A stretch of DNA of 43,166 nucleotides, from positions 1 through 43,166 of the forward strand of contig CAITAM010000086.1 in assembly GCA_903890265.1 (NCBI GenBank), in the 5' to 3' direction. This DNA is from an uncultured Pseudomonadota bacterium (lineage in GTDB: Bacteria > Pseudomonadota > Gammaproteobacteria > Steroidobacterales > Steroidobacteraceae). The position numbers and the translations under genes were made by a program. The notes beneath the pieces were generated by a model that did not search any database, was not told where the DNA came from, and worked only from the letters and a program-made list of their open reading frames with translations. Shown piece after piece: positions 13,705 through 36,973 of the stretch. The number at the start of each line of letters is the position of its first letter. Within the stretch, counting starts at the first letter, position 1.

Positions 13705-13763
13705 TTTCGACTACCTCTCGGGCCGCAGCGACCGCGGCGATGACGTGTGTTCCGCCGCTGCCG

Positions 13764-20673: not shown

Positions 20674-21909
20674 GTGCCCCTTATGCCCACCTCATCGCCG
20701 CCCGTTGCCGTGTTTGATGACACCTGGTCACCCACGCTGACGTTCACGTACTCGCTGGGGCGGCGCGGGGTACCGCTGCACTTCTACGGCAGCGGCTCCG
20801 GCCAATGGACCCGCTTTCGTCATACGAGGGCCGCTTGCCCGCCACCCGGTCTGCCGGACGAATTCCTGCCCTGGCTTCAGGAGAAGATCGCCGCAGGTAC
20901 CATCGCCCGGATCGCGCCGACCAGCGACCTCATCGCCTATTACATTTCGGCGCTGCGGGACCATTTTCCTCGCGACGTGGCCCGGGCGATCGCACCGCTC
21001 AGTGAGATCGAGGCGTGCCTCATCAAGTCGCGTTTCGCCGACCGGTGCCTGTCCGTGGGCTGCGAGACACCGGCCGTCGCGTCGCCGACCGGACTGGATG
21101 AGGCCCTCGAGGCGGCCGAGCGCCTGGGCTACCCGGTCATCCTCAAGCCCAAAAGTCACCTTGGACTCGGCTTCGCCGAGCGTGGCTCGATCGCGCACAG
21201 CGCCGACGAGCTGCGGCAGCAGTTCCGCCCCTACTCGGTCCAGTCGGGACAGAACTATTTCCTGTCCCGCTATCCCGAGTTGCCGTGGCCCTTGCTGCAG
21301 AAATACCTGCCCGCGGCGCAACGGCGGGTCTACAGCGTGTCCGGAGTCCGGGATCGCGACACGGGTATCGTCTCCGCGGCCGTGTCCTTCAAAGGCGAGC
21401 AATGGCCCCCGGGCGTCGGCACGAGCATTCGGCAGGTGGGCGTCAACGACCCGCGTATCCTCACGGCCGGGCTCGGCGTCGTCGAGCACTTCCTGAGTTC
21501 AGGCATCTTCGAACTCGAACTGGTGGAGGATGCCGACGGCGGACTGAACGCGATTGATCTCAATCCGAGGGGCTTTGGTTTCATGGGGCTCGACCTCGCC
21601 CGAGGCCAGGACCTGCCGTGGCTCTGGTACTCGAGCACGTTGCACCCGGTGACGCCACTCGACCAGAGCACCCTGATCGACGCCGTGGAAGCCGTTCCGC
21701 CCGCGATCGGCCTCTGGGTGCTGCTCGCCAATTCGATCGCCGGGCCGTCGAAAAAGCGCGCTATCGTTTCCATGCTGGGGCACGGCGCAGACCCTGCGCC
21801 CCTCGTGCGCAGCAACCTTGCCCACCTGAAGCACCCTCGCAGCCTGCTTCGCGCCCAGTGGCACGCCTACCGGACGCACCGGGATCGGCTGGCCCCGGCA
21901 GCGCCTTAA
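20674..21909 (+). CDS. ATP-grasp-fold ligase (carboxylate-amine/thiol ligase type)
   Basis: It reads GYPVILKPKSH...LLQKYLP...YSVSGV...FELELVEDADGGLNAIDLNPR. The start is GTG 20674 or ATG 20683. Confidence 0.7.
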   Translation: MPLMPTSSPPVAVFDDTWSPTLTFTYSLGRRGVPLHFYGSGSGQWTRFRHTRAACPPPGLPDEFLPWLQEKIAAGTIARIAPTSDLIAYYISALRDHFPRDVARAIAPLSEIEACLIKSRFADRCLSVGCETPAVASPTGLDEALEAAERLGYPVILKPKSHLGLGFAERGSIAHSADELRQQFRPYSVQSGQNYFLSRYPELPWPLLQKYLPAAQRRVYSVSGVRDRDTGIVSAAVSFKGEQWPPGVGTSIRQVGVNDPRILTAGLGVVEHFLSSGIFELELVEDADGGLNAIDLNPRGFGFMGLDLARGQDLPWLWYSSTLHPVTPLDQSTLIDAVEAVPPAIGLWVLLANSIAGPSKKRAIVSMLGHGADPAPLVRSNLAHLKHPRSLLRAQWHAYRTHRDRLAPAAP

Positions 21910-22937
21910 GGCAACGGACCGTCGCCCGCCGCGCCCGATACCCGCCGCGCGTACTGGCGCAGCAGCGTCAAGGACGTGTCCCAGCCGTTGATCAGCGTGT
22001 CGAACGACGAGTAGTCCAGTGCCTTTTTACTGCTCACCGATCGCGCACCCTTCAATACCAGCGCCTTGCACAGCGTCGACATCTCATCGTGCAGCTGCAC
22101 AAGCTCGGCGCGCTCGGGCGCACCGTCCGCGAACAGCCACTCGAAGTACCGCGCGGCCAGGTCGCACATCGCGCCGAGCTGGCGGAAATTGGCGAACGCC
22201 CAGGCGTGGTAGTACTCAAGGCCCCGCTCCTGCAAGCGCGGCAATTCGGCACGCAGCCGGTCGGTAAAGCCAATGACAGGATTGCCGACCGGTCGCCGGC
22301 TGATCTCACGCAAGAGATGCCGTGCCGATCGCTCGCGCAGGTCCCGTCCACTCATCCGCCGCACGCGATCGACGTGGACGACTTCCGCAAATAACGGCAT
22401 GTACTCGGCCGACGGCTCCGCGTCGAGGCGAAACGTCGCGCGGTAGTCCGCGCCGCCCAGACGGAAGTATCCGCCGTTGTGGAAGTAGCCGAGCGTCCCG
22501 GCCCGGGGATCGATCTCGGCGAGAATAATCGTCGACTTCGTGTGCTTGCGCTGGTAGTCCGTCCCGGCGGTATCCGGCAGCCAGAAGGCGTCTGCTTCCG
22601 TGCTGATCAGACGCCCCTCGCCGAGGTAGTCCAGCGCGTGCTCGTGCAGCGTGCGCCAGACGTTCATTTCCTGCACGTCCACGCCGTACAGCTCGAACAG
22701 GTCCGTGTGCGCGGGCTTGAGAAAGGTCCACTGGTCCCCGTCAAAGTGCAGCGACACCGTGACCGGGAGCATGGCATGCGGATCCAAGCCGAGGGAATGG
22801 ACGAGCTCTATCCAGACGTCCACGTAGCAGTTCTTTTCGGGCCACGCGGACGATTCGCCGTGCAAGGCGTGCCGTTGGTAGCCGTCTGCCGAAAGACCCG
22901 CGATCGTCTGCCGGAGCGACTCGCCGTCGGTGCTCAT
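21906..22937 (-). CDS. DUF1839-family protein (unknown function)
   Basis: It reads GESSAWPEKNCYVDVWIELVHSLGLDP...FWLPDTAGTDYQRKHTKSTI...GYFHNGGYF. I recognise the family from memory. The ATG at 22937 lies 2 nt after the ligase stop. Confidence 0.65.
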   Translation of the reverse strand: MSTDGESLRQTIAGLSADGYQRHALHGESSAWPEKNCYVDVWIELVHSLGLDPHAMLPVTVSLHFDGDQWTFLKPAHTDLFELYGVDVQEMNVWRTLHEHALDYLGEGRLISTEADAFWLPDTAGTDYQRKHTKSTIILAEIDPRAGTLGYFHNGGYFRLGGADYRATFRLDAEPSAEYMPLFAEVVHVDRVRRMSGRDLRERSARHLLREISRRPVGNPVIGFTDRLRAELPRLQERGLEYYHAWAFANFRQLGAMCDLAARYFEWLFADGAPERAELVQLHDEMSTLCKALVLKGARSVSSKKALDYSSFDTLINGWDTSLTLLRQYARRVSGAAGDGPLP

Positions 22938-22939
22938 GC

Positions 22940-23854
22940 TCAGAGACCCAGCTTGGTCCGAACCGCACCGGGCCATCGGGCGGGATCAAAGCCGTGGGTT
23001 TTGAAGAGTGCGATGACGATTCGCTCGAGCCCGAAGCCCAGGCAGGCGGTACTCGCGGGCTCGCCGCTCGGCAGGACGATATCGAAGGCAGAGCCGAAGT
23101 ACTGCTGGTGGTAATTGAAGGAACACACGGCGGTCGGCGAGTCACCGTCGTTGACGGGCACGAGCACCTCGAATTTCAGCTGCTGCTGTGCCTGGCTCGC
23201 CGCCATGATCTTGCCGGCCCGGCCGAAAAAAGGATCGGACGCGACGTCGGACACGGCGTCGAGCCCGAGCGATTGGAGGAGCGTGAGGCCACGCTGCAGC
23301 CACATGTCCCGCCACTCCACCACCTGCGCCGGGGTGCCGACCCGGACGAATTCGCGCACCCGAAACGATTGCATCCGCGTGGGCTGCGGTGACGGCTCGT
23401 GACGAAACACCCAGTTGAACATCGTCACGAGATGGCCACTGTCCGGCACGACACCGGTAAAGCTCGGGTAGACCGGGTAGCAGGCCGCCGGATTCAGCAC
23501 GACATCGGTCATCTGCAAGAGGTCGCCCCACGGCTCGCCCGCGGCAATGCGTTGCGAAAAGCCCTTGGAACCGCGTTCATCGCCGAAATAACTGCATACC
23601 GCGCCACACAGGTGCGGGAACGAATCCATGTAATTGAGTTTCTCGATGATCTTGCGGCTGATCACCGGCGGGAACACGCAATAGCGCGCACCGTCGTCCC
23701 TCGAAATCTCATCGACCAGCGCGTTGAACCGTGCCAGCACGAGCTCGAATACCGCACCCCGGCCGAATGCTCCCTGGACACCGACGGGGATGATGAGGCC
23801 GTGCTCGACCAGACCATCGTACAGGGACGTCGGGGGGGCGCTTGCTCCGCTCAT
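22940..23854 (-). CDS. Amino acid:[carrier protein] ligase; class-II aaRS catalytic core (SerRS-like) without a tRNA-binding arm
   Basis: The protein is only 304 aa. Motif-2-like sequence is FRHEPSPQPTRMQSFRVREF and motif-3-like sequence is GFGLERIVIALF. Cys/Glu/Cys candidates (PAACYP, FRHE, AVCSFNYH) match the Zn site described for this family. Confidence 0.8.
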   Translation of the reverse strand: MSGASAPPTSLYDGLVEHGLIIPVGVQGAFGRGAVFELVLARFNALVDEISRDDGARYCVFPPVISRKIIEKLNYMDSFPHLCGAVCSYFGDERGSKGFSQRIAAGEPWGDLLQMTDVVLNPAACYPVYPSFTGVVPDSGHLVTMFNWVFRHEPSPQPTRMQSFRVREFVRVGTPAQVVEWRDMWLQRGLTLLQSLGLDAVSDVASDPFFGRAGKIMAASQAQQQLKFEVLVPVNDGDSPTAVCSFNYHQQYFGSAFDIVLPSGEPASTACLGFGLERIVIALFKTHGFDPARWPGAVRTKLGL

Positions 23855-23867
23855 AGCTCGGTCTCCG

Positions 23868-25037
23868 TCAGTCGTCCTTGACCACGAGCAGCAGAGACGC
23901 GCTCTTCGCTGCTATGCGCTCATTGGAAACCATGAGCGATGCCGATAGCAGGTCCCGGTAATGCCGGCCCACGGAAAACGGCGAGTCGTTCTTATAGCCC
24001 ATCAGGCCGGCGATCTGCAGCGCCTGATGCACGATCCGCGGGCCCGCCTCCGAACAGGCGCACTTCAGCTGGTTGAAGCGCAGGGCCCAGTTCATTGTAG
24101 TCAGTTCCTCGCGTCGGCCGGCGTCAGCCGAAATCTCGTCGAACTCCGCCGCCACCTGCTGCCAGTTATGGCGCATGGACTGCAGGTCCTGGCTGACACG
24201 GGCGAGCAGGATGGCCGAGGGCGGCGTTTCGCCGATTCGCTTGCGGGCCTCCGCGCGAACCACCGCACTTGCCCTCGACACGGCGTCGGCCGCGATCCCG
24301 GACCAGAGTCCAGCCCAGAGCACGTGCGAGTAAGGGACCATGGTGACGGCCGACGAGTCGGCGTAGGACCCGGGGATGATCTGATCGACGTGGCCGCTGG
24401 ACTCGAGCTTGAACCCCGGACTGACGGTCCCGCGCATGCCGAGCGGGTCCCAGGTGGACGTCTGGGTCAGGGTGTAATCGTCCTTCTTCACGAGCACGAG
24501 CACCTGGTCGCTCGCCGGTGACTCGGCCGTGCGGCGGCAGGTGACGAGAATCCCGTCCGCATGGCCGCAATACGATCCCGTGGTCGCGTCCTTGTTGAGC
24601 GTGAAGCGATCGCCGGCAATGTCCACCGCACAGATGCTGGAGCGGGTATCGCCGTAAGTGCCGACCTCCGAGGTCATCGAGGCGAGCAGCCACTGATGCT
24701 CGACGAGGCCGCGCATGTAGTCCTGAAAGTAGGCGGAGTGGGCGCCATGGCGGGCAATGCACCCGACCTGGATGTGGTGCATGGCAAGCACCATGCTGCT
24801 CGCGCCACAACCCTGGCCCAGGGCCGCGCACATGGCGGCGAGATCGCGAAGGCCCATGCCGGCGCCGCCAAACTCCTCCGGTACCGCGGCAGACAACGCC
24901 TTCTCGGCGCGCAGCGCCGCGAGGGTCTCGACCGGGAAGCGTGCGTGCCGATCGACGTCCGGCGCGTGTTTGCTGGCCACGTCCGCGGCGATCTGCTTCA
25001 TCCTGTCGATCATCGGATGTCGGTTCGGCATGGCCAT
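23868..25037 (-). CDS. Acyl-CoA-dehydrogenase-fold flavoprotein
   Basis: It shows the ACAD three-domain pattern (RFPVETLAALRAEKAL..., WDPLGMRGTVSPGF, GRHYRDLLSA). The RBS GAGAGGA fits the second Met (25031) better than the first. Confidence 0.85.
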   Translation of the reverse strand: MAMPNRHPMIDRMKQIAADVASKHAPDVDRHARFPVETLAALRAEKALSAAVPEEFGGAGMGLRDLAAMCAALGQGCGASSMVLAMHHIQVGCIARHGAHSAYFQDYMRGLVEHQWLLASMTSEVGTYGDTRSSICAVDIAGDRFTLNKDATTGSYCGHADGILVTCRRTAESPASDQVLVLVKKDDYTLTQTSTWDPLGMRGTVSPGFKLESSGHVDQIIPGSYADSSAVTMVPYSHVLWAGLWSGIAADAVSRASAVVRAEARKRIGETPPSAILLARVSQDLQSMRHNWQQVAAEFDEISADAGRREELTTMNWALRFNQLKCACSEAGPRIVHQALQIAGLMGYKNDSPFSVGRHYRDLLSASLMVSNERIAAKSASLLLVVKDD

Positions 25038-25174
25038 CCTCTCGTACCAGCGGCGCAGTTGATCGCCGGCTCCTCGTTGTCCCCGCGCGGATCTTACCGG
25101 ATCAGCGCTGCAGTTCCGGGAAGTAAATCCGGGTTTTGCCGACGCTTTCGCTGCACAAAACGCGTCGATGCGCG

Positions 25175-27688
25175 TCAGTTCGTCCAGTGCAGCACCCGTT
25201 CGCGAGTTATGTTCGCTGCCCGAAGGATCAGGCGACTCCCGAGCGGCAACCCGTTGCCCGCGAGCACGAGGCGCAGCGCAGCGCTGCCGGGCAGCAGGTC
25301 CACGTAGTTGTCGGAAAACGTGGCACCCGGCAGTTCCAGCGCAAGACCACGGACGTAGCGCGAAGCACTGACGATCAGCGCGGCCTGGTCGTGGTCTCGA
25401 TCGACCGTGATCGACACGTCATCCCATCGCGCCGAGGGGACGTCGACACCCGGCGGGCGGTACCCGCACTCGGCCAGTACCGCGCCCTGCCGATCCCGGA
25501 GCCTTGCTACGACGGTGTCATGCACCGGGGGGCCGAAGCGGTACACGTAGGACAGGTCCTGCCAGGTGTCGAACAGCTCGTTGGCGGATACGACCACGGT
25601 TGCGTGTGCCGCGATCTCGATCGGTGCCGAGCCGATCGTGCCGACGGGCGTTCCATCGCGGTACGTGGTCACCTCAAGGTGGCCCTCGACGACACCGGGC
25701 CGGTCGCTGGTCACGCATAGCGCAAGGCCCGCGCAGCCCCGGTCGGCGATGGTGACACCGAGCGGCTGGAGCACGCGGCGCAGCCCGTACCACGCCGCCT
25801 TCGGCCGGCCCGCGGAGTCGAGGATGCCCCAGCCGGCACCGGGCCACAGGTCGCGCAGGAACAGCACCAGGGCTCCCCGGCAGCGTGACGGTCCGCTTCG
25901 CCACTCGGCCATCGTCGCGGCCATCAACTCCGCGCTGACCAGCCGGCTGAGCGCGAGGTAGCGCTCGTGATCGGCGTAGCGCACGGCAGCAGGCGCCATG
26001 CCAAAGAGCTGCGCGAAATAACGATCCCGGACGTCATCAAAGTCCCAGCCCGCCCCGAGATCGCGTGGCGCACGCTCGTGCCACCTCGCCTGGTGAACAC
26101 GACTGTCCGCGCCGGGCAGCATTTCATCGAGCGAGTCGCGCTCCGGCACGTTGGCGAGAGCGAGGCATTCGGTCGCAAAGACCGGCGCGTCGTTCCGTCG
26201 CTCGTGCATCGAGAGCTGGTACGCGCCCACGCCGTAGTAGGACGTCGTGCCAGACGAGGGATCGTGCGGGAACGACCCGCCGTGCGCGCTCGACGGCCAG
26301 TACGGCACAGCGGGTGACAGCGATCTTGCGAGCTCGGCGATGGGGCCGTGAAAGAGCGTCGGAGTCCACAACTCCCGCTGCGTGCCCCACATCGCAGCCT
26401 GCTGCTCGACTTCGCTGTTGCCGCAGATCACGGCAAGGCACGGGCGGCGACGGAGATCCGAGATCGTCTGGCGTACCTCCTCGGTGACGGACTGCAGGAA
26501 ATCGCCATCATCGGCCGGATAATCCATGTTGGCGAACATCAGGTCCTGCCAGACAAGAATTCCCCTGGCGTCGCAGGCATCGAAGAAGGCGTCGCTCTCG
26601 TAGGTCATCGTGCCAACGACACGGACGGTGTTCATTCCGGCCGCCGCCACCAGGGACAGCATGCGCTCGTACTCGGCGGCCGTTGCGGTCAGCGAGACGG
26701 GATCCGGGGGTGTCCAGCAGACGCCACGGCAGAATACGGGCACGTCGTTGATGAACAGGCGGAATTCGGTGGCCGTGGTCTGCAGCGAGACGCGGCGAAA
26801 GCCGACGGCACCGAGGTCGACCTCGCTGCCGTCTGCCGCGCACAGGTACGCGTCGTAGAGCGCCGGCTCCCCGTGGGTATGGGGCCACCATTTCGCCACG
26901 TTCTCGACACGAAGTACCGCCGTGGCCGCTTGGTCGGCCGACACGTCGATGGGCGCGCTGAATACCTCGCCCAGTCGCCTGAGCTCAAGCCGCAGGCCGT
27001 CGCACCGATCGCCATCGCAGCGCGCACGAAGCGCCAAGACGCCGGTCGTGCCCTCGAGCTCGCAGTCAAGGTCGATCGCCGACAGGGACGACCCGGCCGA
27101 CGTGCCGAGCCAGACGTCGCGCCACGGACCGACCGCGGCCGCGGGCGGCGACCAGCCGGGAGTACGCCCGAGCAATGTCGTCCGCCACCAGCGCAGCTGC
27201 TGGTTCTCGACCATGGGCGTGCGCCAACGGGGCCGTGGCCTGCGCTCCTTCAGCAGACGGTCAAGCGCCGCGAAGCGAATGACGAGCGCATGGGCGCCGG
27301 GTTCCGGCGAGCCGAGCGGCAGTTCGTGGCGCAGGAACATGTTGCGGCTGGAGAGGAGCTCCCGATCATCCAGCCAGACGGTGGCGGCCGTGGCGAGGCC
27401 GTCCAGGCCGAGCGTCAGCGGGGCTCGTGGTGCCGGGACGTCGACGCGGACCCGGTACCACCAATCCACGTCGTCGAAACGACGTGGCGGACCGTTTAGC
27501 GACCACCGACCGAGGGCGCGCAGCGACGCCGCGGCGGTCGACGGGACGGTTGTAGGGAGCCACTCCGGGCCCGCACTGGCGACGTCCCGCGGGGTCACGC
27601 ACTGGCCGGCCGGCGTGCAGCAGAACTCCCAGTCGTCATGCAGGCGCCGGACGGCCGCGAACCTCGTCCCGAGACGGCGCTGCTCCAT
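25175..27688 (-). CDS. Glycoside hydrolase family 2, beta-mannosidase-like; no signal peptide
   Basis: It reads DWWYRVRV...NTVRVVGTMTYESDAFFDACDARGILVWQDLMFAN...ICGNSEVEQ...FATECLA. Both Glu-containing motifs are present. Confidence 0.8.
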   Translation of the reverse strand: MEQRRLGTRFAAVRRLHDDWEFCCTPAGQCVTPRDVASAGPEWLPTTVPSTAAASLRALGRWSLNGPPRRFDDVDWWYRVRVDVPAPRAPLTLGLDGLATAATVWLDDRELLSSRNMFLRHELPLGSPEPGAHALVIRFAALDRLLKERRPRPRWRTPMVENQQLRWWRTTLLGRTPGWSPPAAAVGPWRDVWLGTSAGSSLSAIDLDCELEGTTGVLALRARCDGDRCDGLRLELRRLGEVFSAPIDVSADQAATAVLRVENVAKWWPHTHGEPALYDAYLCAADGSEVDLGAVGFRRVSLQTTATEFRLFINDVPVFCRGVCWTPPDPVSLTATAAEYERMLSLVAAAGMNTVRVVGTMTYESDAFFDACDARGILVWQDLMFANMDYPADDGDFLQSVTEEVRQTISDLRRRPCLAVICGNSEVEQQAAMWGTQRELWTPTLFHGPIAELARSLSPAVPYWPSSAHGGSFPHDPSSGTTSYYGVGAYQLSMHERRNDAPVFATECLALANVPERDSLDEMLPGADSRVHQARWHERAPRDLGAGWDFDDVRDRYFAQLFGMAPAAVRYADHERYLALSRLVSAELMAATMAEWRSGPSRCRGALVLFLRDLWPGAGWGILDSAGRPKAAWYGLRRVLQPLGVTIADRGCAGLALCVTSDRPGVVEGHLEVTTYRDGTPVGTIGSAPIEIAAHATVVVSANELFDTWQDLSYVYRFGPPVHDTVVARLRDRQGAVLAECGYRPPGVDVPSARWDDVSITVDRDHDQAALIVSASRYVRGLALELPGATFSDNYVDLLPGSAALRLVLAGNGLPLGSRLILRAANITRERVLHWTN

Positions 27689-27697
27689 GACTGGGTG

Positions 27698-27964
27698 TTA
27701 CCCGGCGTCGACCAGTTTTTCGACCGCCGCCTGGATCGTCGCAATGCTCGTAAAGACGCCCCGGGTCAGCATCTGGTCGGGAAACTCGATGCCAAAGTGT
27801 TCTTCAAGCGCCAGCATGACGTTGACCGTCGCGTGGGACGTCAATCCGTGGGCACTGAGTTCGGCATCGCGCGCAATGGAACTCGCTGGCGCGGCGAGCC
27901 GCCCGTGCTCGGCAAGAATCTGGCGAATGCTCTCGTCCTGTTGCTCTTTACTGCTCATGTCCAT
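27698..27964 (-). CDS. Stand-alone acyl/peptidyl carrier protein
   Basis: The 88-aa protein reads ...GLTSHATVNVMLALEEHFGIEFPDQML..., an ACP helix II pattern with a candidate phosphopantetheinyl Ser. Its stop lies 9 nt before the GH2 ATG. Confidence 0.8.
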   Translation of the reverse strand: MDMSSKEQQDESIRQILAEHGRLAAPASSIARDAELSAHGLTSHATVNVMLALEEHFGIEFPDQMLTRGVFTSIATIQAAVEKLVDAG

Positions 27965-28154: not shown

Positions 28155-29096
28155 ATGATCTCCTCCAGCCCGGTCCGGCGCTTCTGGCTGGCGGCAGCAG
28201 CCCTCGCGGCTGTCTGCGCGTTTACGGGTCGCGAATGGCTGATCGCCTGGCGCACGGCCAGGGCCGACTTTGCGGGCCACACCGCCGATGCGACGGCGCC
28301 ACGCTGCGCCAGCGCCCGCTCACCCGACCCGATCACGTTCGGCGTGGCCGGTTCCGGTGCGCTGCACGGCTGGTACTCGGCCTCGCGGAACGGTGCCACC
28401 GTGATCGTGCTGCACGGCTCCGGGTCGACGGCGGCATCGATGGTCGCGGAAATGTGCCTGCTCGCCGGCGCCGGATTCGGCGTGCTGGCTTATGACAGTC
28501 CGGGCTTTGGCGAGAGCCCGGGTCACGTCCGCTGGGCCGACGACGAGGAAGCCGCGTTTCACCGTGCCGTGGCCTGGATCGAGGCCCGGGACCCGATGCG
28601 GCCCGAGGCGATCGGCGCCCTCGGATTCTCCATGGGAGCCTACGTGCTGACCTGCGCCGTCGGGCGCGAACCGCGCGTGGGTGCCGTGGTGCTGATTGCC
28701 TCCCCCGATGACCTGCAGCGCCAGATCCTTCACGAGTCGGGGTCATTCCCCGTGCTCAAATGGCCGGCGGCGTACCTGGCGTCGCGCTACCTGCGCGGGC
28801 TTCCCGCTGACAACCGCCAGCCGATAGACTGCATCTCTGACATCAGCCCGCGGCCCCTATTGATGATCCGAGGAGTAAACGACCGCGTCGTACCGGAGGC
28901 CGCCACGACCGCGCTGTACGCGCGCGCGCGGGCACCGAAGGATCTTTGGCTCGTGCCGTCGGCTGGGCACGGAGGCTATCTAGAGGCCGCGCCGCACGCG
29001 TACCCCGAGCACCTGATCGGCTTTTTCGATCGCGCGCTTCGCGCAGCACCCGGGCCACGGACGAGCGAACCGGCGCACGGCGGGCGCAGCCCGTGA
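28155..29096 (+). CDS. Membrane-anchored alpha/beta hydrolase (canonical Ser nucleophile)
   Basis: This is the in-frame tail of track ORF 26922..29096, starting at MISSSPVRRFWLAAAALAAVCAF (TM). Motifs are VIVLHGSG, GFSMGAY and SAGHGGY. Confidence 0.8.
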   Translation: MISSSPVRRFWLAAAALAAVCAFTGREWLIAWRTARADFAGHTADATAPRCASARSPDPITFGVAGSGALHGWYSASRNGATVIVLHGSGSTAASMVAEMCLLAGAGFGVLAYDSPGFGESPGHVRWADDEEAAFHRAVAWIEARDPMRPEAIGALGFSMGAYVLTCAVGREPRVGAVVLIASPDDLQRQILHESGSFPVLKWPAAYLASRYLRGLPADNRQPIDCISDISPRPLLMIRGVNDRVVPEAATTALYARARAPKDLWLVPSAGHGGYLEAAPHAYPEHLIGFFDRALRAAPGPRTSEPAHGGRSP

Positions 29097-30850
29097 CGCT
29101 GCCGGTCGACTTCCTCTACCTTGGCGGCTGCGCCGTCCGGCTGCACCGGGCGTCCGGTCCGCGAGCAATCGTCATCTGCCCGGCGCTCGGCGTGGAAGGG
29201 TTGGTGCTGCACCGGATCGTCCACGACCTCGCGCAGTCACTGCAGCGGGACGGCCACCCGGTACTGGCTATCGACTACCCCGGGACCGGGGATTCCAGGG
29301 ACACGGAGGCGTCCGCCGACCAGGTGCCGCTGTGGGTCGACGGTGTCGTCCGGGCCGTTCAGTTCCTCAGACACCAGCCCGGGGTGCGGGACGTGGTGCT
29401 GGTCGGATTCGACCTGGGCGCCTTGCTGGCGGTGTTGGCGGCCGCGCGGACGGCCGTCGCTGGCGTTGCCCTCGTCGGCCCGCCGGGCAGCGGCCGCGCC
29501 TTCGTCAGGGCGCTGGTGGCCCGTCAGGCGGTCAACGGGGCACCGGACGAGGCATCACGGGTCACCGGCACCCGCGGCGACCTGGAAATCAACGGCTTTG
29601 TTTACAGCGCCGCAACGCTGTCCTCGCTCGAGACCATCACCGTCAAGGACTTGCCGCGTGCACCGGCGCCGGACGTCCTCGTGCTGGGGCGTGGTGGCTG
29701 GGCCCCCGAGGAGCGCCTCTGCCGCGAGTTGCAGTCGCTCGGCGCCAACGCCCGGCTGGAGACGCTCGCGGGCTATGCCGACATGCGCTGGCACTCGACG
29801 TTTTCGGTGCTCGCCCCGGAGGCCTTCGTCGGGCTTCGCCGGTGGCTTGCGGCGCTGCCCCCCTCGGCGAACGAAGCGCCATCTGCCCATGACGAACCGG
29901 CCGATACCCTGGCGGGCCTCGGCTGGGAGGAGTCGCCGCGAACGTTCGGGCACGGTTGCCTGCTGCGCGGCGTTCTCTGCACGCCGGCGCAACGCACGCC
30001 GGACGTCTGCGTTCTGATCATCAATCACGGCGCCAATCGCCGTATCGGCTGGGGTGGAATGTACGTTCCGCTCGCACGGCAACTGGCGGTGCTCGGAATC
30101 GCGTCCTTCCGAGTGGACCTGGCCGGCCTCGGCGACAGCGACCGACGGCCCAACCAGGCCGATCGGGCGCTCTACGACACCGATTACTTTGAGGACGTCG
30201 AGACGGCGCTGCAATACCTGCACGAGCAGGGCTTCGGCCGACTCGCACTGCTGGGTCACTGCAGCGGCGCGTACCATGCCTTTCACGCCGCCTCACGGAA
30301 TCCGCGCGTCATCGCACTCGCGCTCGTCAATCTCGCGCTCTTTCACTGGATTCCGGGCACCTCGCTCGACGAATCCGAGCGAAAGAGCGCAAAGCGCCTC
30401 GGATGGTATGTCGCCGAGGCGGTCAATCCCGCCACGTGGCGGCGGCTGGTCAGCGGCCGGATCAACGTCGGCCACATCGCGAGCGCCTTTGCGCGCCGCG
30501 CGGGCCGGCTGATCCGCGTCCGTGCCAGTGCCGCGCTGCCCGCGTCCACCGGGACCGCGATCAGTGTCGTGGACACGTTCCGCGGGTTCTCGGCGCGCGG
30601 CACACGGGTACTCGTGGTCTACAGTGACAACGATGGCGGCCTTGACGAGTTCTCTCTGCACTGCGGCCGCGGCGGCCGCCGGGTGCTGCGGCTGCCCGGG
30701 GTGTCGCTCGCGTTGCTGCCGGGCGCCGATCACAACGTTTCCGCGCAGAGCGCGCGGGCGCTGTATTTCATCTACCTGCAGCAGTTCCTTGCCGAGGCGG
30801 CCGGCCTGCCGCTCAGCGTGCGACCGGCCAGCCCGTCGCAGTCCGTCTAG
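29093..30850 (+). CDS. Two-domain alpha/beta-hydrolase fusion (resembles the exosortase-A-associated hydrolase 2 + hydrolase 1 pair)
   Basis: A GTG start overlaps the upstream stop (GTGA, coordinates per the ORF track). The N-terminal half reads VICPALG...DYPGTGDS...LVGFDLGALLA. The C-terminal half reads LIINHGAN...DLAGLGDS...LLGHCSGAYHA...VYSDNDGG...PGADHN. Confidence 0.7.
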   Translation: MTLPVDFLYLGGCAVRLHRASGPRAIVICPALGVEGLVLHRIVHDLAQSLQRDGHPVLAIDYPGTGDSRDTEASADQVPLWVDGVVRAVQFLRHQPGVRDVVLVGFDLGALLAVLAAARTAVAGVALVGPPGSGRAFVRALVARQAVNGAPDEASRVTGTRGDLEINGFVYSAATLSSLETITVKDLPRAPAPDVLVLGRGGWAPEERLCRELQSLGANARLETLAGYADMRWHSTFSVLAPEAFVGLRRWLAALPPSANEAPSAHDEPADTLAGLGWEESPRTFGHGCLLRGVLCTPAQRTPDVCVLIINHGANRRIGWGGMYVPLARQLAVLGIASFRVDLAGLGDSDRRPNQADRALYDTDYFEDVETALQYLHEQGFGRLALLGHCSGAYHAFHAASRNPRVIALALVNLALFHWIPGTSLDESERKSAKRLGWYVAEAVNPATWRRLVSGRINVGHIASAFARRAGRLIRVRASAALPASTGTAISVVDTFRGFSARGTRVLVVYSDNDGGLDEFSLHCGRGGRRVLRLPGVSLALLPGADHNVSAQSARALYFIYLQQFLAEAAGLPLSVRPASPSQSV

Positions 30851-32082
30851 CGGGCACCCGAAGGCCCCGGAAACCCACGGGCCTCGACCACCGCACGCTG
30901 CACCAGGAGGTCGATGTCGCACGAGTGCCGGTGCCTCGCCCACACCGCCTCGGCGCGCTGTCGCCACCCCGCGGCGCTGCGCTCGCTGACCCAGCGTCCG
31001 AGCGTCTCTCGCAGCGTGCCGATTTCAAACGGCAGGTAGTCCTCGTCCGGCACCAGCCCCGATCCCCGGACACCGAACGGCGTGGACAGGACCGGCAGGC
31101 GCGCCGCGAGGTACTCGAAGAGCTTCACGTTCGCCCCGGCGCCGCGGGTGATGGGGTTGAGACCGGCATCCGCAGCACAGAAAAACGGCAGGATATCGGG
31201 CACGCGCCCCGTGGCGATCATCGTCTGCGTCCGAAAGGGCGCCGGACAGACGCCGCCCAGCACCAGAAACTGCAAGTTGTGCGCGGTCAGGAACTCCGCT
31301 TCCCGTTCGCTGAATGCCCGCAGCTCGTCCAGCGCCTCGTTGTTCGGACCGTAGCGACTGCCGGCGAACAGCAGCAGCCGGGCATCCGGCTTCACCTCAA
31401 GCTCGCGGCGCGTCGACTCGCGCAGCGCGACCGGCGCCTCGTAACGACGCGGATCCACCCCGCAGCGCACGATCGGCATGCGGCGCAACCCGCTCGGGTC
31501 GTGCGAACGGAAAAACTCATGATCTTCCTCGGCGCACGCGAATACGTCGGTGAATTCCGTGGCAACCGAGACCTCGTGGCGGCGCATCGCGGGCGCATAC
31601 GCCCGCATGGCGGGCGAGCCCTGCTCCAGCAGGCGGTGCTCGAGCTGGTGACTGAGCAGGAACCAGGGCTTCTCCGTCCACGGCCCGGGCACCCGCGGGA
31701 CGTAGGCGTGATCGGCAACGACCGCGTCCGCCCATGCCAGATGGTTCCTCAGCCGTGCGGTAATGCGGCCGGATCCCAGCATGGCGGGGATCCACTGGCG
31801 CGGCCGGTCGCGGTAGCGGGAAATGGCGTGGACGATGGCCGGGTATGGGCCGAGGTACGTCTCCTCACGGACACTGGGCTCGACCTGATCGATACGGTGG
31901 TCCCGGTACCCGGGCCGGTAGGCGGAATAATCCGAGCGACGCCCGGTCAGGCTGTAGATCAGAACCTCGTAGCCCATCCGGCCGAGCGCCGCGGCAAAGC
32001 CCGCCGTGCGCAGCTGCCCGCCGCTTATGACCGGGAAAATCCGCAGTCCCGACAGAACAAGTATGCGCGTCGGGCGGCTCAC
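30847..32082 (-). CDS. Glycosyltransferase, GT-B fold (GT4/group 1)
   Basis: It reads RILVLSGLRIFPVISGGQLRT...LLFAGSRYGPN...GANVKLFEYLAARLPVLST. The GTG at 32082 overlaps the GT2 stop (GTGA). ATG 32109 is an alternative. The Arg-rich 170 aa upstream in the track ORF are unlikely to be real. Confidence 0.8.
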   Translation of the reverse strand: MSRPTRILVLSGLRIFPVISGGQLRTAGFAAALGRMGYEVLIYSLTGRRSDYSAYRPGYRDHRIDQVEPSVREETYLGPYPAIVHAISRYRDRPRQWIPAMLGSGRITARLRNHLAWADAVVADHAYVPRVPGPWTEKPWFLLSHQLEHRLLEQGSPAMRAYAPAMRRHEVSVATEFTDVFACAEEDHEFFRSHDPSGLRRMPIVRCGVDPRRYEAPVALRESTRRELEVKPDARLLLFAGSRYGPNNEALDELRAFSEREAEFLTAHNLQFLVLGGVCPAPFRTQTMIATGRVPDILPFFCAADAGLNPITRGAGANVKLFEYLAARLPVLSTPFGVRGSGLVPDEDYLPFEIGTLRETLGRWVSERSAAGWRQRAEAVWARHRHSCDIDLLVQRAVVEARGFPGPSGAR

Positions 32083-33269
32083 GGTCGGCGCCTCTCGGTG
32101 CGTACCCATTGGGTATGGCTGCGGTTCGTAAGCCGGGTCCAGACCTTCCAGACGACAAACCACGGTACGCGCATGAAATCGAGCACGCCACGCAGACCGA
32201 TACCGCTCAACTGCCAGCCGCGACCGACATAGGCCAGAAGTGCCGCGACGCCGAGCGCATCCGCCACCGCGAGCCATCGGGCACCAGCGCTGCCGAGGAC
32301 GATCAGGCACCCGGTCGCGGTCGCCACCGCCGCGAGCGCAATGACCAGGGTCGACAGCGGCGGGAGGACGAGATCGGCCAGCAGATCGGCGCAGACCGGA
32401 TCGCGCCGCGACACCGTTGCCGTCAGCAGCGTCCTCGCATGCGAGCGCACCAACGCCGCCCGACCGGCCTCCCAGCGCTGGCGTTGCTTCGCGGCGGCGC
32501 CCGACGACGACACCATGTCGCCGAGCACGAACGCCTCGTCGGCGTAGTACACGCGGGCTCCTGCACGAAGCGCAATGTCCATCCCGAACTCGATGTCTTC
32601 CGCCAGCGAATAAGCGCAATAGGGAACTTGTCTCAACAACTCAACCGTCACGCACCAGCCGTTACCGCGAATTCCGCAGGAGAGTGAAAACCGCTCCCGG
32701 GCACGCGAGCGAACGATGTGAAAGCAGGAGAGAGCGACGCTCATCAGCCGTGTCCGCCAGGAATCCATGGGATTCAGCGCGCCGTAGTGGCACTGCACCG
32801 CCTGAGCGCCGGCATCCAGCCGCGACGCCATGGCCTGCAGCAGGTTTTCGGAGACGACACTGTCCGCGTCCACCACGACAATGGCCTGAGAAAACGGGTC
32901 CGCGAGGACCTGCTCGAAGGCGAATTCCAGCGCGTAACCCTTGCCGCGCCGGTCAGCGCTCGTCCGGACGAGCACCTCGGCACCGGCCGCCTGCGCGATC
33001 TCGGCGGTCCGATCGGTGCAGTTGTCGGCGATGACGAGAATGCGCCGGCGCTCCTGCGGCCAGACGACGGCCTTGAGGCTCTGTACCGTTCGCTCGATGC
33101 CGAGCTCCTCGTTGTGTGCCGGCACCACGACGACGAAGTGCCACTCCGCACGGTCGTCGGAATAGCCCGGAAGCCGCCCGGAAAACAGCGTCATTGCCAG
33201 CAGGTAGAGACAGCCGAGCGCGACCGGGACAGTCGCAATCGCGACGACGATCAGCAGCAATGTCGTCAT
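32079..33269 (-). CDS. Membrane glycosyltransferase family 2
   Basis: It has an N-terminal TM, then VVVPAHNEE...VIADNCTDRT...RRGKGYAL...VVVDADS and C-terminal TM segments. Confidence 0.85.
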   Translation of the reverse strand: MTTLLLIVVAIATVPVALGCLYLLAMTLFSGRLPGYSDDRAEWHFVVVVPAHNEELGIERTVQSLKAVVWPQERRRILVIADNCTDRTAEIAQAAGAEVLVRTSADRRGKGYALEFAFEQVLADPFSQAIVVVDADSVVSENLLQAMASRLDAGAQAVQCHYGALNPMDSWRTRLMSVALSCFHIVRSRARERFSLSCGIRGNGWCVTVELLRQVPYCAYSLAEDIEFGMDIALRAGARVYYADEAFVLGDMVSSSGAAAKQRQRWEAGRAALVRSHARTLLTATVSRRDPVCADLLADLVLPPLSTLVIALAAVATATGCLIVLGSAGARWLAVADALGVAALLAYVGRGWQLSGIGLRGVLDFMRVPWFVVWKVWTRLTNRSHTQWVRTERRRP

Positions 33270-33372
33270 GGCAGCGCCCCCGGTAACTCAAAGACGCCCC
33301 AGGCCCCGGCACCCGGCCCGCGGATGCCCTGGACCCCTGAGAACCTGCGACCGGTCACGACGGACAACCGAC

Positions 33373-34323
33373 TCAGAAGCTGTTCAGCACCGAGCCAACA
33401 ACGTGAGTCCCGGTGGTTGCGAGCCGTCGCAGGGCATTCTTCAGGTCCGCCCGACGGGTGTGCCCCGTGCGACTCAGCATCAACGCACGACCCGCGACCT
33501 TCGCGAGCAGCAGCCCGTCGGCAAACTGCCCCAACGGCGGCGTGTCCAGAATGACAAACTCGTACTCCGCCCGCCACCGAGCGACCATGCGGTGGAACGC
33601 GGGGTCGGACAGCATTTCGAGGGGACTCGGCATCGGCGCACCGGCGAAGACGACGGAGAGTTCGGCGATATCCTCGACGTCGTAGGCCTGCAATGGCGCG
33701 CTGAAGGCGATGGCCTGCGACAGGCCCCATTCTTCCGATGAAGACAGGAAAAGCTTGTGCTGCGCCGAGGCGCGGAAATCCGTGTCGATGAGGAGCGTCC
33801 GGCGCCCCAGCTGCGCGTAGCAGATCGCAAGCTCAGCGGCGAGCAGGGAGCGCCCCTCGCGGGTTCCGGGGCTCAGCACCGCGAGCATGCCGTTGTGTTC
33901 GTGGTTCTGCGCCTTGAGCACGAGCTCGGTTCGAAGCGCGCGCACCGCATCGCCGCGTACGCTCCGCGGATTCAGCACCTCGGCAAGCTGCGGTCCCGGC
34001 ACGACGACATTACCGACCCGAAGCGCGCGACTGCGCTCGGGCTCCGGCTCCGGCTGGCTCGCCACCATCCGGACGAGGCTTTTTGCGTCGCCCGAATGCG
34101 GCTCCTTGCCGCCTTGTCCGAGCATGGCGATGATGCCGTCGAGCTGGATCTGGGTAAGGAACCCGAGCCGCAGGGCCGCGGTCGCAAAACCGATCTTCTC
34201 GCCCTGGGCCATCCGCCGGATGGTGTGAATGGCTTCGTCCGAGAGACCAAGCTGGCCGACGATGGCGTCACCGAGCTCGTGCTCCCATTCATTGAGCGTG
34301 TCGCCGGTCACCTTGACCTTCAT
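33373..34323 (-). CDS. EpsG-like chain-length-determinant P-loop protein (BY-kinase/MinD fold) with an atypical Walker A
   Basis: It reads VLSPGTREGRSLLAAELA (Walker A with Arg), LLIDTDFR (A') and FVILDTPP (B). There is no C-terminal Tyr cluster. The ATG overlaps the upstream stop (ATGA). Confidence 0.8.
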   Translation of the reverse strand: MKVKVTGDTLNEWEHELGDAIVGQLGLSDEAIHTIRRMAQGEKIGFATAALRLGFLTQIQLDGIIAMLGQGGKEPHSGDAKSLVRMVASQPEPEPERSRALRVGNVVVPGPQLAEVLNPRSVRGDAVRALRTELVLKAQNHEHNGMLAVLSPGTREGRSLLAAELAICYAQLGRRTLLIDTDFRASAQHKLFLSSSEEWGLSQAIAFSAPLQAYDVEDIAELSVVFAGAPMPSPLEMLSDPAFHRMVARWRAEYEFVILDTPPLGQFADGLLLAKVAGRALMLSRTGHTRRADLKNALRRLATTGTHVVGSVLNSF

Positions 34324-35771
34324 GGACTACTCCGGGACGGCCGGATCGGGCCGAACTCCGCCAGCACAGGGAGGCCGAAATCCCGCTCGTGATCGTCGCG
34401 ATGGCGGATCCTGCGGTTCCAGAACAATTCGTACGCCAATGGCCCCGCGAGACCCATGAGCAGTCCGCCGACCAGGCCCATGAGAAGAAGCTTAACTTTA
34501 CTCGGCTTGGACGGCTTGAAGGGCGGCGTCGCACGATCGATCAGCGTCACGTTGGCGCCCCGACTGTTGGATGCGAACATGATCTGGTCGTAGCCATCCA
34601 GGGCCCGCTTGTAGACCGACTGGGCCGACTCGAGCTCGACCAGCAGCTTCGCTCCCTCGTCCTGCAACTCACGTGTCGCCAGCACCTTCTGGCGCTGGGC
34701 GCCGATCGCTCCCGAGTACTTGCCTTCGAGCTGACGCGCGCTGCGCACTTTCTGCGAGTTGTTTTCCGCCAGGATTCGCAGTTCCGCCGACAGCTGCGCC
34801 CGAACCGCTTCGATCTGCGCGTCCGCTTCGAGGATCTTCGGATGGTTTGGGCCAAAGGTGTTGAGCAGCTTGGCCTTTTCCGCCTCCTTGAGTTCGAGCT
34901 GTGACTTCAGGGTGTTGATCGCGTTGGAGGTCAGCGCCTCGTCCGTTGCCGCCACGTTCGAGGTCGCACGCGATTCGGCGGTCCGCCTCTCATTTTGCGC
35001 TTCCTGCAGCCGGGTCTCGAGGTCCGACAGACCCTGCACATCGATGTCAGATTTCGATTGGGCAGACACGACTTCGGTGAGACCGTTCTTGGCACGGAAA
35101 TCCGTTACCTTGGCCTGGGCTGCGGCGACCTTTGCGCGCAGCTCACCCAACTGCTCCGTGTAACGCTTCGCCCGCTCGGTGGCCGGCCCGCTGGTGCGCT
35201 CACGGTAGAGATCGAGATAGGTATCGGCGACCTCATTGGCGATCGCGGCCGCCGCGTCGGCGGTACGGCCCGTCGCGTTCACGTAGAGCAGTTGGCCGCC
35301 GCGGCCCTCGTAGACCGCGAGCTTGGTCGCGAGCACACGCACCGCCGCGTCACGCAGCACGTTCTGGTCACCGCGTACCCCGCCGGTGAATGACTTGTCG
35401 GCCGTCAGGTTCAGTTTGTCGACCACCTGGTTGAGTACCACCGGGCTCGTGATGAGTTCGGTCTGGGTTGCAATGAAGCTCTGCAGCAGCCCAAGTGGCA
35501 TTTGCTCGCCGGCCAGCGGGTCACGATTCTGGTAGTCAAAAATGAGCGTGGCGCTCGCCGTGTACGCTTTCGGGATGACCTGGATCAGAAGTACCGTGCC
35601 CAAAAGCGTGACGGCAGCAATGGACAGCGAGAGACGCCAGTAGGCGCGCGCAATGCTCAGAAACTGCCCTGCGGAAAAGCCAACCCCGGCATAGCCCTCG
35701 TGTATGGTCGGATAGACCGCATCGAGATCGCTGGAAACGACGAGTCCGGATGAGCGATTAGGACCGTTCAA
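34320..35771 (-). CDS. Wzz/EpsF-like polysaccharide chain-length determinant (PCP family)
   Basis: It has an N-terminal TM followed by YTASATLIFD, a long coiled-coil and a C-terminal TM (LLLMGLVGGLLMGLAG). The apparent TTG start overlaps the Wza-like stop (TTGA). Confidence 0.85.
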   Translation of the reverse strand: MNGPNRSSGLVVSSDLDAVYPTIHEGYAGVGFSAGQFLSIARAYWRLSLSIAAVTLLGTVLLIQVIPKAYTASATLIFDYQNRDPLAGEQMPLGLLQSFIATQTELITSPVVLNQVVDKLNLTADKSFTGGVRGDQNVLRDAAVRVLATKLAVYEGRGGQLLYVNATGRTADAAAAIANEVADTYLDLYRERTSGPATERAKRYTEQLGELRAKVAAAQAKVTDFRAKNGLTEVVSAQSKSDIDVQGLSDLETRLQEAQNERRTAESRATSNVAATDEALTSNAINTLKSQLELKEAEKAKLLNTFGPNHPKILEADAQIEAVRAQLSAELRILAENNSQKVRSARQLEGKYSGAIGAQRQKVLATRELQDEGAKLLVELESAQSVYKRALDGYDQIMFASNSRGANVTLIDRATPPFKPSKPSKVKLLLMGLVGGLLMGLAGPLAYELFWNRRIRHRDDHERDFGLPVLAEFGPIRPSRSSP

Positions 35772-36670: not shown

Positions 36671-36690
36671 TGCGCAGTTCTCACTTCGCT

Positions 36691-36706
36691 TTCAAAAACC
36701 GTGCCG
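36691..36706 (-). promoter_or_regulatory. Sigma-54-like element CGGCAC-GGTTT-TTGAA upstream of the export operon (GG present, -12 reads GA not GC)
   Basis: This is the reverse complement of ttcaaaaaccgtgccg. The GG-to-(G) spacing equals the consensus 12 nt. It lies 21-36 nt upstream of ATG 36670. Confidence 0.2.
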
Positions 36707-36973
36707 CGTTCACGCCTGCGGTGGCCTCGCGCCATGACCGTTTGCGCGGCCGGTCCGCGGCGACCCCGGGGCTCATCCTTCGCTGTGAATGACGCCGGTT
36801 TGACGCGCCAACCGCAGCCCACCGCGCTTCTGTGAATTAGGGCACGACGGCCCTCTGTCGGTATTTTACACTCCGGAAGGGCAGAAGAGCGTCAGGTATG
36901 CCCGACGCGCGGGGCGGTTGCCACCGGAGTCGGGATCGCGCTCGGTCGCTCGCACGGGTCCGCGCGTCTCGCT

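Follow-up and report, generated by a model that had tools for sequence, protein, structure and literature searches.

A six-gene carrier-protein cassette around an aminoacyl-tRNA synthetase-like ligase in a Steroidobacteraceae contig, and its possible part in aminoacyl transfer to sugars

What does a bacterium make from an amino acid that is loaded onto a small carrier protein by a relative of the aminoacyl-tRNA synthetases (aaRSs)? This question is raised by contig CAITAM010000086.1 of an uncultured member of the Steroidobacteraceae, of which a stretch of 43,166 nt was analysed (called the window here; all coordinates refer to it) and which encodes an amino acid:[carrier protein] ligase among tightly packed genes. 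According to reviews, such ligases load glycine or alanine onto the phosphopantetheine arm of a carrier protein from the same operon; they were found and crystallised between 2010 and 2013, and a review from 2022 still describes their biological role as unknown. The neighbourhood of the ligase has been described before. A note in proof by Aravind, de Souza and Iyer in Biology Direct in 2010 (PMC2922099) named an acyl carrier protein (ACP), a redox enzyme, Atu2574, a glycosidase and lipopolysaccharide genes next to it. In 2023, Ozhelvaci and Steczkiewicz (PMC10318531) assigned the DUF1839 family to the papain-like fold, remotely related to DUF6005, and reported the same neighbourhood of glycoside hydrolase family 2 (GH2) protein, ligase, acyl-CoA dehydrogenase (ACAD) and ACP. 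The idea that the DUF1839 protein places the amino acid on an amino sugar was published in 2010 (PMC2922099) and again in 2023 (PMC10318531, Journal of Biological Chemistry supplement), so that neither the neighbourhood nor the sugar hypothesis of the original prediction for this locus, which regarded the final product and the roles of the neighbouring genes as not established, is new. Beyond these papers, a literature search for a product or phenotype of the cassette and for later functional work found only transcriptome and proteome listings and reviews.

The cassette in the window is a new member of this known orphan cassette, and the functional idea is reasonable and was published before. 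It is another copy that leaves the overall picture unchanged and sharpens the questions. Five things are added here, namely a sixth conserved gene, a fold match of the DUF1839 protein to CtaG and CcbD, the lack of a catalytic-base glutamate in the ACAD-fold protein, an altered sugar motif in the GH2 protein beside an intact pair of catalytic glutamates, and the finding that the adjacent exopolysaccharide genes are not constant neighbours. The reading examined in the following is that of a six-gene thiotemplate cassette without a nonribosomal peptide synthetase (NRPS), which would transfer an aminoacyl group to an amino sugar or sugar-containing acceptor; the chances for and against it are taken to be evenly balanced.

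Five of the genes lie on the minus strand. They encode, in the direction of transcription, an 88-aa aminoacyl carrier protein (27698-27964), an 837-aa beta-mannosidase-like protein of family GH2 (25175-27688), a 389-aa ACAD-fold flavoprotein (23868-25037), the 304-aa ligase (22940-23854) and a 343-aa DUF1839 protein (21906-22937). The open reading frame (ORF) of the latter spans 21906-22976, and the ATG at 22937 gives the 343-aa form that is also present in a public protein collection (P0001). Recomputed gaps are 9 nt between ACP and GH2, 137 nt between GH2 and ACAD (25038-25174), 13 nt between ACAD and ligase and 2 nt between ligase and DUF1839, which reproduces the coordinates and spacings given originally for the five ORFs. 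The third-position GC content of 0.77-0.84 in these five genes, together with homologues of their products that are 40-73% identical, indicates that they are real genes. However, the description as a five-gene cassette was incomplete, as six genes are conserved and a tandem alpha/beta-hydrolase of 585 aa on the plus strand (29093-30850), similar to the hydr2/hydr1 families, had been overlooked. In and around the cluster, including the 137-nt gap and the divergent region, no Rfam family, tRNA, promoter-like site or FNR/CRP-like box was found, and the only terminator-like site nearby lies within a gene.

The ligase scores 387 bits against its NCBIfam model NF005479 (cut-off 357), compared with 74 bits (PRK00960) and 67 bits for models of seryl-tRNA synthetase (SerRS). 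Among PDB structures, Bll0957 (3mey/4h2w) is matched with 262 bits (E 6e-77, about 50% identity) and the type-2 SerRS 3w3s with 59 bits (E 3e-15). The alignments run over residues 47-332 of Bll0957 and residues 224-506 of the 527 residues of 3w3s, that is, over the catalytic core only, and by these alignments the protein is a class-II SerRS-like core without a tRNA-binding domain. That it might be a divergent true SerRS or a decayed paralogue, placed in the cluster by chance, has its basis in the homology to the methanogen-type SerRS core, as seen in the PRK00960 and 3w3s matches. This explanation is effectively refuted: the protein has 304 aa versus about 520 aa in such a SerRS, the ligase model scores five-fold higher and above its cut-off, the ACP accompanies the ligase in 42 of the 43 long loci described below, and the window contains no tRNA genes. 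A genuine tRNA-charging enzyme was ruled out on these grounds of family scores, length and synteny.

Cys125, Glu168 and Cys271 of the ligase align with the Cys/Glu/Cys set of Bll0957 in AACYPV, FRMREY and HTGCVAFG, and all three are conserved across 59 homologues. We take them to match the zinc ligands of Bll0957, presumably Cys131, Glu176 and Cys279. Motifs 2 and 3 align between the two enzymes as well. In the same homologues, the sequence ACLGFGLER is conserved to at least 90%. Within it, Gly273 aligns with Ala281 of Bll0957, so that the family reads CLGFG where the glycine-specific Bll0957 reads CVAFG. A glycine is also found at this place in a Rhizobium orthologue, whose carrier-protein-binding helix is as in the second Bll0957-derived sequence of 4h2w (with Atu2571). 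This second sequence is assumed to be an Atu2573-type helix swap, and residue 281 is assumed to act as a gatekeeper, with a preference of Atu2573 for alanine. Since both the ligase family and the Rhizobium orthologue have glycine where the glycine-specific enzyme has alanine, alanine is more probable than glycine as the loaded amino acid.

The partner of the ligase, the ACP (27698-27964), reaches 97.7 bits against PRK07081 (cut-off 72) and also matches Pfam PP-binding; its best PDB matches are the nuclear magnetic resonance structure of Atu2571 (2jq4) and chain 4h2w_C, aligned from end to end with E 2e-16. Ser43 (codon 27836-27838, motif GLTSHA) aligns with the second serine of GLSSFA in Atu2571 and is the predicted phosphopantetheine attachment site, and the four-helix fold of an ACP would be expected from homology to the solved structures. 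Three claims made for this pair have therefore been borne out: that the ligase belongs with the carrier-protein ligases and not with SerRS, that it carries the motifs FRVREF and GFGLERI and the Cys/Glu/Cys set, and that the 88-aa protein is its cognate carrier. A tblastn search found no dedicated AcpS-type phosphopantetheinyl transferase (PPTase) in the window; in about 20 related loci an AcpS-type PPTase adjoins the ACP gene.

How far the arrangement is conserved was determined in a scan of one genome per species, which yielded 77 loci encoding a relative of the ligase, 43 of them at least 17 kb long. The 77 loci come from Gamma- and Betaproteobacteria, Myxococcota, Gemmatimonadota, Planctomycetota, Acidobacteriota and Actinomycetota, and the closest ligases (70-73% identical) belong to Steroidobacteraceae and other gammaproteobacterial metagenome-assembled genomes (MAGs). 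All five genes are present in 42 of the 43 long loci, which agrees with the proposed co-occurrence of ACP, ACAD-fold, DUF1839 and GH2 genes with the ligase. ACAD, ligase and DUF1839 are contiguous in every locus of sufficient length, whereas ACP and GH2 form a second module of variable position and orientation, which elsewhere appears as ACP-GH2-hydrolase. As the genes form two movable modules elsewhere, the 137-nt gap can be read as the module junction. The tandem hydrolase is encoded in 38 of the 43 long loci and comes right after GH2, in the same orientation, in 38 of 51 loci. Strict synteny is seen from Alpha-, Beta- and Gammaproteobacteria to Myxococcota, Gemmatimonadota, Planctomycetota and Actinomycetota, and the arrangement is well beyond chance. 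The cassette is patchily distributed and often located on plasmids or chromids, DUF1839 alone, clustered at 90% identity, comprises about 2,400 groups of proteins, and with hosts such as Agrobacterium, Rhizobium, Azospirillum, Burkholderia and Mycetohabitans the cassette is widespread in agriculturally and ecologically relevant bacteria.

The operons Atu2571-Atu2575 of Agrobacterium tumefaciens and Bll0957-Bll0958-Bsr0959 of Bradyrhizobium japonicum contain the same ligase family, with about 50% identity to Bll0957 and the Cys/Glu/Cys set kept, the same carrier-protein family (closest to Atu2571) and the same partners ACAD, DUF1839 (Atu2574) and GH2. They differ in that the host of the window is gammaproteobacterium-like and its copy adjoins an exopolysaccharide (EPS) locus. 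The gene order differs too. In Alpha- and Betaproteobacteria such as Azospirillum and Mycetohabitans, one tight operon ACP-ACAD-ligase-DUF1839-GH2-hydrolase is found, with the hydrolase last, whereas in the window ACP-GH2 and ACAD-ligase-DUF1839 share the minus strand and the hydrolase is divergent on the plus strand, behind an additional membrane-anchored hydrolase. Around the cassettes, Acyl_transf_3, a membrane acyltransferase, is an accessory gene in 23 of the 77 loci. When 125 randomly taken neighbour ORFs were assigned to Pfam families, the most frequent were Acyl_transf_3, polysaccharide deacetylase and ACPS six times each and asparagine synthase four times, besides epimerases and sugar transferases, and genes for an S-adenosylmethionine (SAM)-dependent methyltransferase, a flavin reductase or an AMP-binding protein occur as occasional accessories.

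The DUF1839 protein is the candidate for the transfer enzyme. It matches PF08893 over positions 2-312 of the 313 positions of the profile (E 5e-97), and Cys37, His153 and Asp164 are invariant in an alignment of 40 sequences. An AlphaFold2 model built with 40 homologues (pLDDT 91, pTM 0.90) consists of a mixed alpha/beta N-terminal domain that reaches to about residue 190, followed by a helical bundle whose five long helices lie in residues 197-335; Cys37 opens a helix. A Foldseek search of the PDB with this model returned CtaG (E 3e-7), AziU2/U3 and CcbD (E 2e-5), all over the full length and with probability 1.0, with about 330 aligned columns and TM scores of 0.56-0.63 to CtaG and about 0.5 to CcbD, and the next-ranked match had an E value of only 0.05. 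The spacing of Cys37, His153 and Asp164 (116 and 11 residues), read from the sequence, resembles that of Cys11, His128 and Asp144 in CtaG. With CtaG and CcbD, structures of analogues with a known mechanism are at hand for this candidate. In the CtaG paper, this papain-like enzyme accepts an acyl group from a peptidyl carrier protein (PCP) thioester on Cys11, which acts with His128 and Asp144, and hands it over to an amine in a ping-pong reaction; for its homologues AsbE and BtrH, the donor is PCP-bound and the acceptor is a free amine. CcbD and LmbD transfer carrier-protein-bound proline to the amino group of the lincosamide thio-octose, also by a ping-pong mechanism with a Cys-His-Glu triad. 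The prediction for the DUF1839 protein is thus a papain-like transacylase (amide synthase) that depends on a carrier protein. In comparison with the class of CtaG, AsbE, BtrH and MllDE and with the lincosamide condensing enzymes CcbD and LmbD, its predicted bipartite fold corresponds to that of CtaG and CcbD over the full length, its invariant Cys/His/Asp residues are candidates for a triad, and it is encoded beside a stand-alone carrier protein and its loader. It differs in that an aaRS-like ligase would load the donor instead of an adenylation or ATP-grasp enzyme, in that no sequence similarity is detectable, and in that the CtaG paper does not count DUF1839 among the homologues.

The sixth gene is a relative of the exosortase-A-associated hydr2/hydr1 pair and, by its scores, not a member of either family: it reaches 71 bits on TIGR03101 (cut-off 203) and 101 bits on TIGR03100 (cut-off 168), both below the cut-offs, and its Azospirillum orthologue scores 109 bits on each. 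The protein, which is listed in the public collection as P0121, combines two halves. The N-terminal, hydr2_PEP-like half has Asp107 (Arg in most homologues) at the nucleophile elbow and is probably non-catalytic. The C-terminal, hydr1_PEP-like half has an invariant Cys390 in the motif G-H-C-S-G and an invariant His547, and in the alignment to 9w30 the cysteine occupies the serine elbow. Foldseek and PDB sequence searches with the protein returned only generic lipases and esterases. Cysteine-dependent aminoacyl shuttles of the alpha/beta-hydrolase fold are known in SyrC and CmaE.

The exosortase-A cassette, the other place where such a pair occurs, comprises the AMP-ligase TIGR03098, an ACP, the pyridoxal-phosphate-dependent decarboxylase TIGR03099, TIGR03100 and TIGR03101; the carrier protein belongs to it according to the TIGRFAM and Genome Property descriptions. 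Both cassettes place a carrier protein and a loader with these hydrolases and tend to sit near EPS genes. In the window cassette, however, the hydrolases are fused, the loader is aaRS-like and the scores stay below the cut-offs, and DUF1839, ACAD and GH2 are absent from the exosortase-A cassette. NCBIfam defines the hydr1/hydr2 pair by its association with EPS and exosortase genes, in an exosortase-A cassette with the AMP-ligase. No exosortase gene was seen in the 43-kb window. A further arrangement was observed on the Nevskiaceae MAG contig DASZZC010000688.1 (L082, 1-7005), where an NRPS-type adenylation-PCP protein is fused to a hydr2-like domain and followed by a hydr1-like gene (GLCSG), an Sfp-type PPTase, a 607-aa protein without family match and Acyl_transf_3; it looks like a third kind of carrier-protein cassette around the hydr2/hydr1 pair. 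The occurrence of this pair with three unrelated carrier-protein loaders argues for a role in the handling of carrier-protein thioesters. Through its sixth member, with the cysteine nucleophile, the operon is connected to the exosortase-associated hydrolases, which are orphans as well.

Directly upstream of the tandem hydrolase on the plus strand lies the gene for the 313-aa alpha/beta-hydrolase with an N-terminal membrane anchor (28155-29096; Pfam Abhydrolase_1 and Hydrolase_4). Its stop overlaps the GTG start of the tandem hydrolase (GTGA), to which it appears to be translationally coupled. Homologues were found in three of the 77 related loci (L006, L022 and L044), making it a non-conserved accessory.

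The carrier-bound intermediate had been suggested to be oxidised or tailored. By the ACAD-fold protein (23868-25037), Pfam Acyl-CoA_dh_N, _M and _1/_2 are all matched, in accordance with the three-domain ACAD fold, and oxidation is plausible. However, the catalytic glutamate base of ACADs is absent at both known positions. The protein has Val370 where medium-chain ACAD has Glu376 and short-chain ACAD (SCAD) has Glu368, and 73 homologues vary at this place. The alignment with SCAD (2vig) stops at HYRD, and the SCAD segment ITEIYEGT that follows corresponds to SASLMVSN. The helix-G position of Glu254 in isovaleryl-CoA dehydrogenase is occupied by the segment P-Y-S-H238. Without the glutamate, oxygenation rather than dehydrogenation is possible. 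The protein may thus not belong with the classical acyl-CoA dehydrogenases, which makes the label dehydrogenase doubtful on sequence grounds, and the likelihood of N- or C-oxygenation or of amine oxidation equals that of alpha,beta-dehydrogenation. Overall similarity was rejected as a means to decide between the two, since single-sequence and profile searches of the PDB score both classes equally. As a separate observation, a flavin-reductase domain fused to a MarR-like C-terminus is encoded just upstream of the cassette in about seven loci (among them L001, L002, L007, L043, L050 and L051); it could be a reductase partner of the ACAD-fold protein or a regulator.

The GH2 protein (25175-27688) matches Pfam Glyco_hydro_2_N2 and Ig_mannosidase and, in the PDB, the beta-mannosidases 5n6u (E 2e-47, residues 73-716) and BtMan2A (E 3e-42); it has no signal peptide. 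Its motif GNSE aligns with GNNE of BtMan2A and ATEC with SEFG, which makes Glu426 (CGNSE) the putative acid/base and Glu507 (FATEC) the putative nucleophile, if Glu462 and Glu555 of BtMan2A are, as we assume, acid/base and nucleophile, respectively. The segments CGNSE, FAsECLaFAN and PGWSPP are each at least 90% conserved in 52 homologues. The last of these (residues 177-182) stands where beta-mannosidases have GWDWGP, a motif that is absent here, with W-S-P in place of WDW, and the WDW motif contributes to the -1 subsite for beta-mannosides. From this we infer a family member with a retaining-type active site and another sugar specificity, which is probably not a beta-mannosidase. The conservation of both glutamates argues for a real carbohydrate step.

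Taken together, these features suggest a route in four steps. In the first, the zinc-dependent ligase would use ATP to activate a small amino acid and load it as a thioester onto the phosphopantetheine arm at Ser43 of the ACP. This loading has been demonstrated in vitro for homologues and is inferred for the present proteins, as are the three steps that follow, of which the last is the weakest. In the second, the ACAD-fold flavoprotein would tailor the tethered aminoacyl group or the acceptor amine. In the third, Cys37 of the DUF1839 protein would take over the acyl group and pass it in a ping-pong reaction to the amine of a free acceptor, most likely a cytoplasmic amino sugar or another sugar-containing molecule. 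This proposal follows from the DUF1839 fold and its invariant residues, as CtaG, BtrH, AsbE and CcbD work in this way, and the sugar acceptor from the analogy with CcbD and BtrH and from the GH2 enzyme that is always encoded alongside. In the fourth, Cys390 of the hydrolase might serve as a second thioester station for onward transfer or proofreading, and the GH2 enzyme might bind, trim or unmask the carbohydrate partner. The suggestion that the amino acid is delivered to a sugar has gained plausibility by the match to CcbD, an enzyme of amino-sugar acylation, whereas product and acceptor are still hypothetical.

The logic of such a route is familiar from other systems, with an aaRS-like loader replacing the ATP-grasp or adenylation enzyme. 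In butirosin biosynthesis, the 4-amino-2-hydroxybutyrate (AHBA) side chain is made by a cassette of the ACP BtrI, the ATP-grasp loader BtrJ, BtrK, the flavin monooxygenase BtrO/BtrV, the transacylase BtrH and BtrG. There, too, a stand-alone ACP is loaded, a flavoenzyme tailors the tethered group and a papain-like transacylase transfers it to a sugar-based amine. Loader, tailoring enzymes and transacylase belong to other families, though, the window cassette has no decarboxylase and no gamma-glutamyl protecting-group enzymes, and its GH2 protein and Cys hydrolase are without a Btr counterpart. The Dlt system (DltA, DltC, DltB and DltD) D-alanylates teichoic acids, and AlmEFG adds glycine to lipid A of Vibrio. 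Both have in common with the cassette that an amino acid is held on a small dedicated carrier protein for delivery to an envelope glycoconjugate, a target that is hypothetical here. The accessory Acyl_transf_3 is loosely analogous to DltB but not part of the conserved core, and only the carrier-protein fold is homologous.

Against aminoacyl transfer to a sugar stand a number of points. No experiment has identified any product of such cassettes. Neither a glycosyltransferase nor a transporter or flippase is encoded in the core, and a cytoplasmic location appears likely for each of the six proteins. Two cysteine enzymes and a glycosidase exceed the needs of a simple one-step decoration. The PDB profile scores (86 bits for short-chain ACADs and 72-83 bits for the flavin-dependent amino-sugar N-oxygenases DnmZ, KijD3 and ORF36) do not settle substrate and chemistry of the ACAD-fold protein. 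As to the DUF1839 protein, its likeness to CtaG and CcbD holds at the fold level only, and family membership is not claimed; its family profile finds no sequence match among PDB chains (best E 0.5), and no match to the Pfam models BtrH_N and DUF6005 was obtained even at E values up to 10. AziU2/U3, which obtained equal Foldseek scores, are part of an aziridine-forming system and not acyl transferases. A published model of DUF1839 (PMC10318531) gives the active site as C-(T/S)-H. Furthermore, the EPS genes of the window are not conserved neighbours of the cassette in the 77 loci, and the Azospirillum cassette sits among unrelated genes without polysaccharide genes nearby.

A more detailed version of aminoacyl transfer to sugars is possible, although doubtful. 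According to it, the cassettes would provide widespread, NRPS-independent aminoacylation of glycans or amino sugars in soil bacteria and in plant- or fungus-associated bacteria, with the ligase in the role of DltA and with two successive thioesters on the DUF1839 cysteine and the hydrolase cysteine. An alanyl or glycyl group, possibly N-oxygenated or otherwise oxidised, would go to the amine of a sugar that the GH2 enzyme has made ready. If true, this would give a function to three orphans at once, the amino acid:[carrier protein] ligases, DUF1839 and the hydr1/hydr2 hydrolases. If the acceptor were a surface glycan, Gram-negative bacteria would have a further, new way to aminoacylate their envelope.

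The product of the same enzymes could instead be a small molecule that diffuses, for instance an aminoacylated amine or polyamine or an aminoglycoside-like or siderophore-like compound, and not a decorated cell-surface polymer. DUF1839 would then be an amide synthase of the CtaG/AsbE type and the hydrolase a shuttle or releasing thioesterase, and GH2 would remove a protecting sugar in a prodrug activation. All characterised relatives of the DUF1839 fold (CtaG, AsbE, BtrH, MllDE, CcbD and AziU2/U3) act in specialised-metabolite pathways, and the cassette resembles a biosynthetic gene cluster in being self-contained, patchy and often plasmid- or chromid-borne, with a methyltransferase, flavin reductase or AMP-binding accessory now and then and, in Azospirillum, at a distance from polysaccharide genes. 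Nevertheless, a small molecule is considered unlikely, as the core lacks an exporter, a pair of regulator and resistance gene and an enzyme that builds a scaffold, primary metabolism would have to supply the second building block, the accessory neighbours are most often polysaccharide genes, and the hydr1/hydr2 families are defined by EPS and exosortase association. Transfer to a lipid or protein, for instance to give an aminoacyl or N-acyl head group on a lipid or a modified PEP-CTERM or other protein, is still less probable. It would make the alpha/beta-hydrolase the true transferase and GH2 non-catalytic or unrelated, which does not fit the strong conservation of the GH2 catalytic residues. 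Databases do name hydrolase homologues lysophospholipase or pimeloyl-ACP methyl ester esterase, the Foldseek neighbours of the hydrolase model are lipases and monoacylglycerol lipases, the hydr1/hydr2 relatives are tied to PEP-CTERM protein sorting, and a review lists aaRS paralogues that modify proteins or lipids (PoxA and ErdS). But the enzymes that resemble DUF1839 in fold have small amines or amino sugars as substrates, and lipid-synthesis genes do not recur in the neighbourhood census.

The placement of the cassette inside a polysaccharide locus, as originally described, is true for the window, where the right flank (30.8-42.7 kb) is an EPS locus, and does not extend to the cassette in general, as the EPS genes are not conserved neighbours and the Azospirillum operon lies elsewhere. 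A polysaccharide context is recurrent, not obligatory. The export and assembly genes at 30847-38260 encode an EpsU-like family 2 glycosyltransferase (GT2), a family 4 glycosyltransferase (GT4), an EpsG-like tyrosine kinase, an EpsF-like chain-length determinant/co-polymerase, a Wza-like exporter and an EpsL-like outer-membrane protein. They resemble EpsL, EpsF, EpsG and EpsU of XrtB/PEP-CTERM-type loci with scores below the cut-offs. The EPS locus was rejected as part of the cassette, as tblastn searches with GT2, GT4, Wzc, Wzz, Wza and EpsL-like queries gave next to no matches close to the cassette in the 77 loci. The flank also holds an Acyl_transf_3 gene and an FkbH-domain protein, the latter joining a hexapeptide transferase to an FkbH/HAD-IIIC domain (40297-42663, minus strand; TIGR01686, 284 bits). 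Directly downstream of it on the same strand lies a gene for a hexapeptide-repeat transferase whose C-terminus forms an ACP-like tail, LPEWDSLGALRLL (39515-40300), a second, unrelated carrier-protein element within the EPS locus.

On the left, an ATP-grasp-like ORF on the plus strand (20674-21909; weak CPSase and LysX matches) converges on the DUF1839 gene with an overlap of 4 nt. This ORF and the MetA and prolyl-aminopeptidase-like genes of the left flank were considered as parts of the system and set aside, as no homologues occur in the related loci. Further away, two tandem paralogues of about 815 aa each (8737-11178 and 11245-13710, minus strand) combine a DAO FAD-oxidoreductase with a GCV_T domain. 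They are similar to dimethylglycine/sarcosine dehydrogenases and adjoin genes for a TonB-dependent receptor and a phosphodiesterase-like protein.

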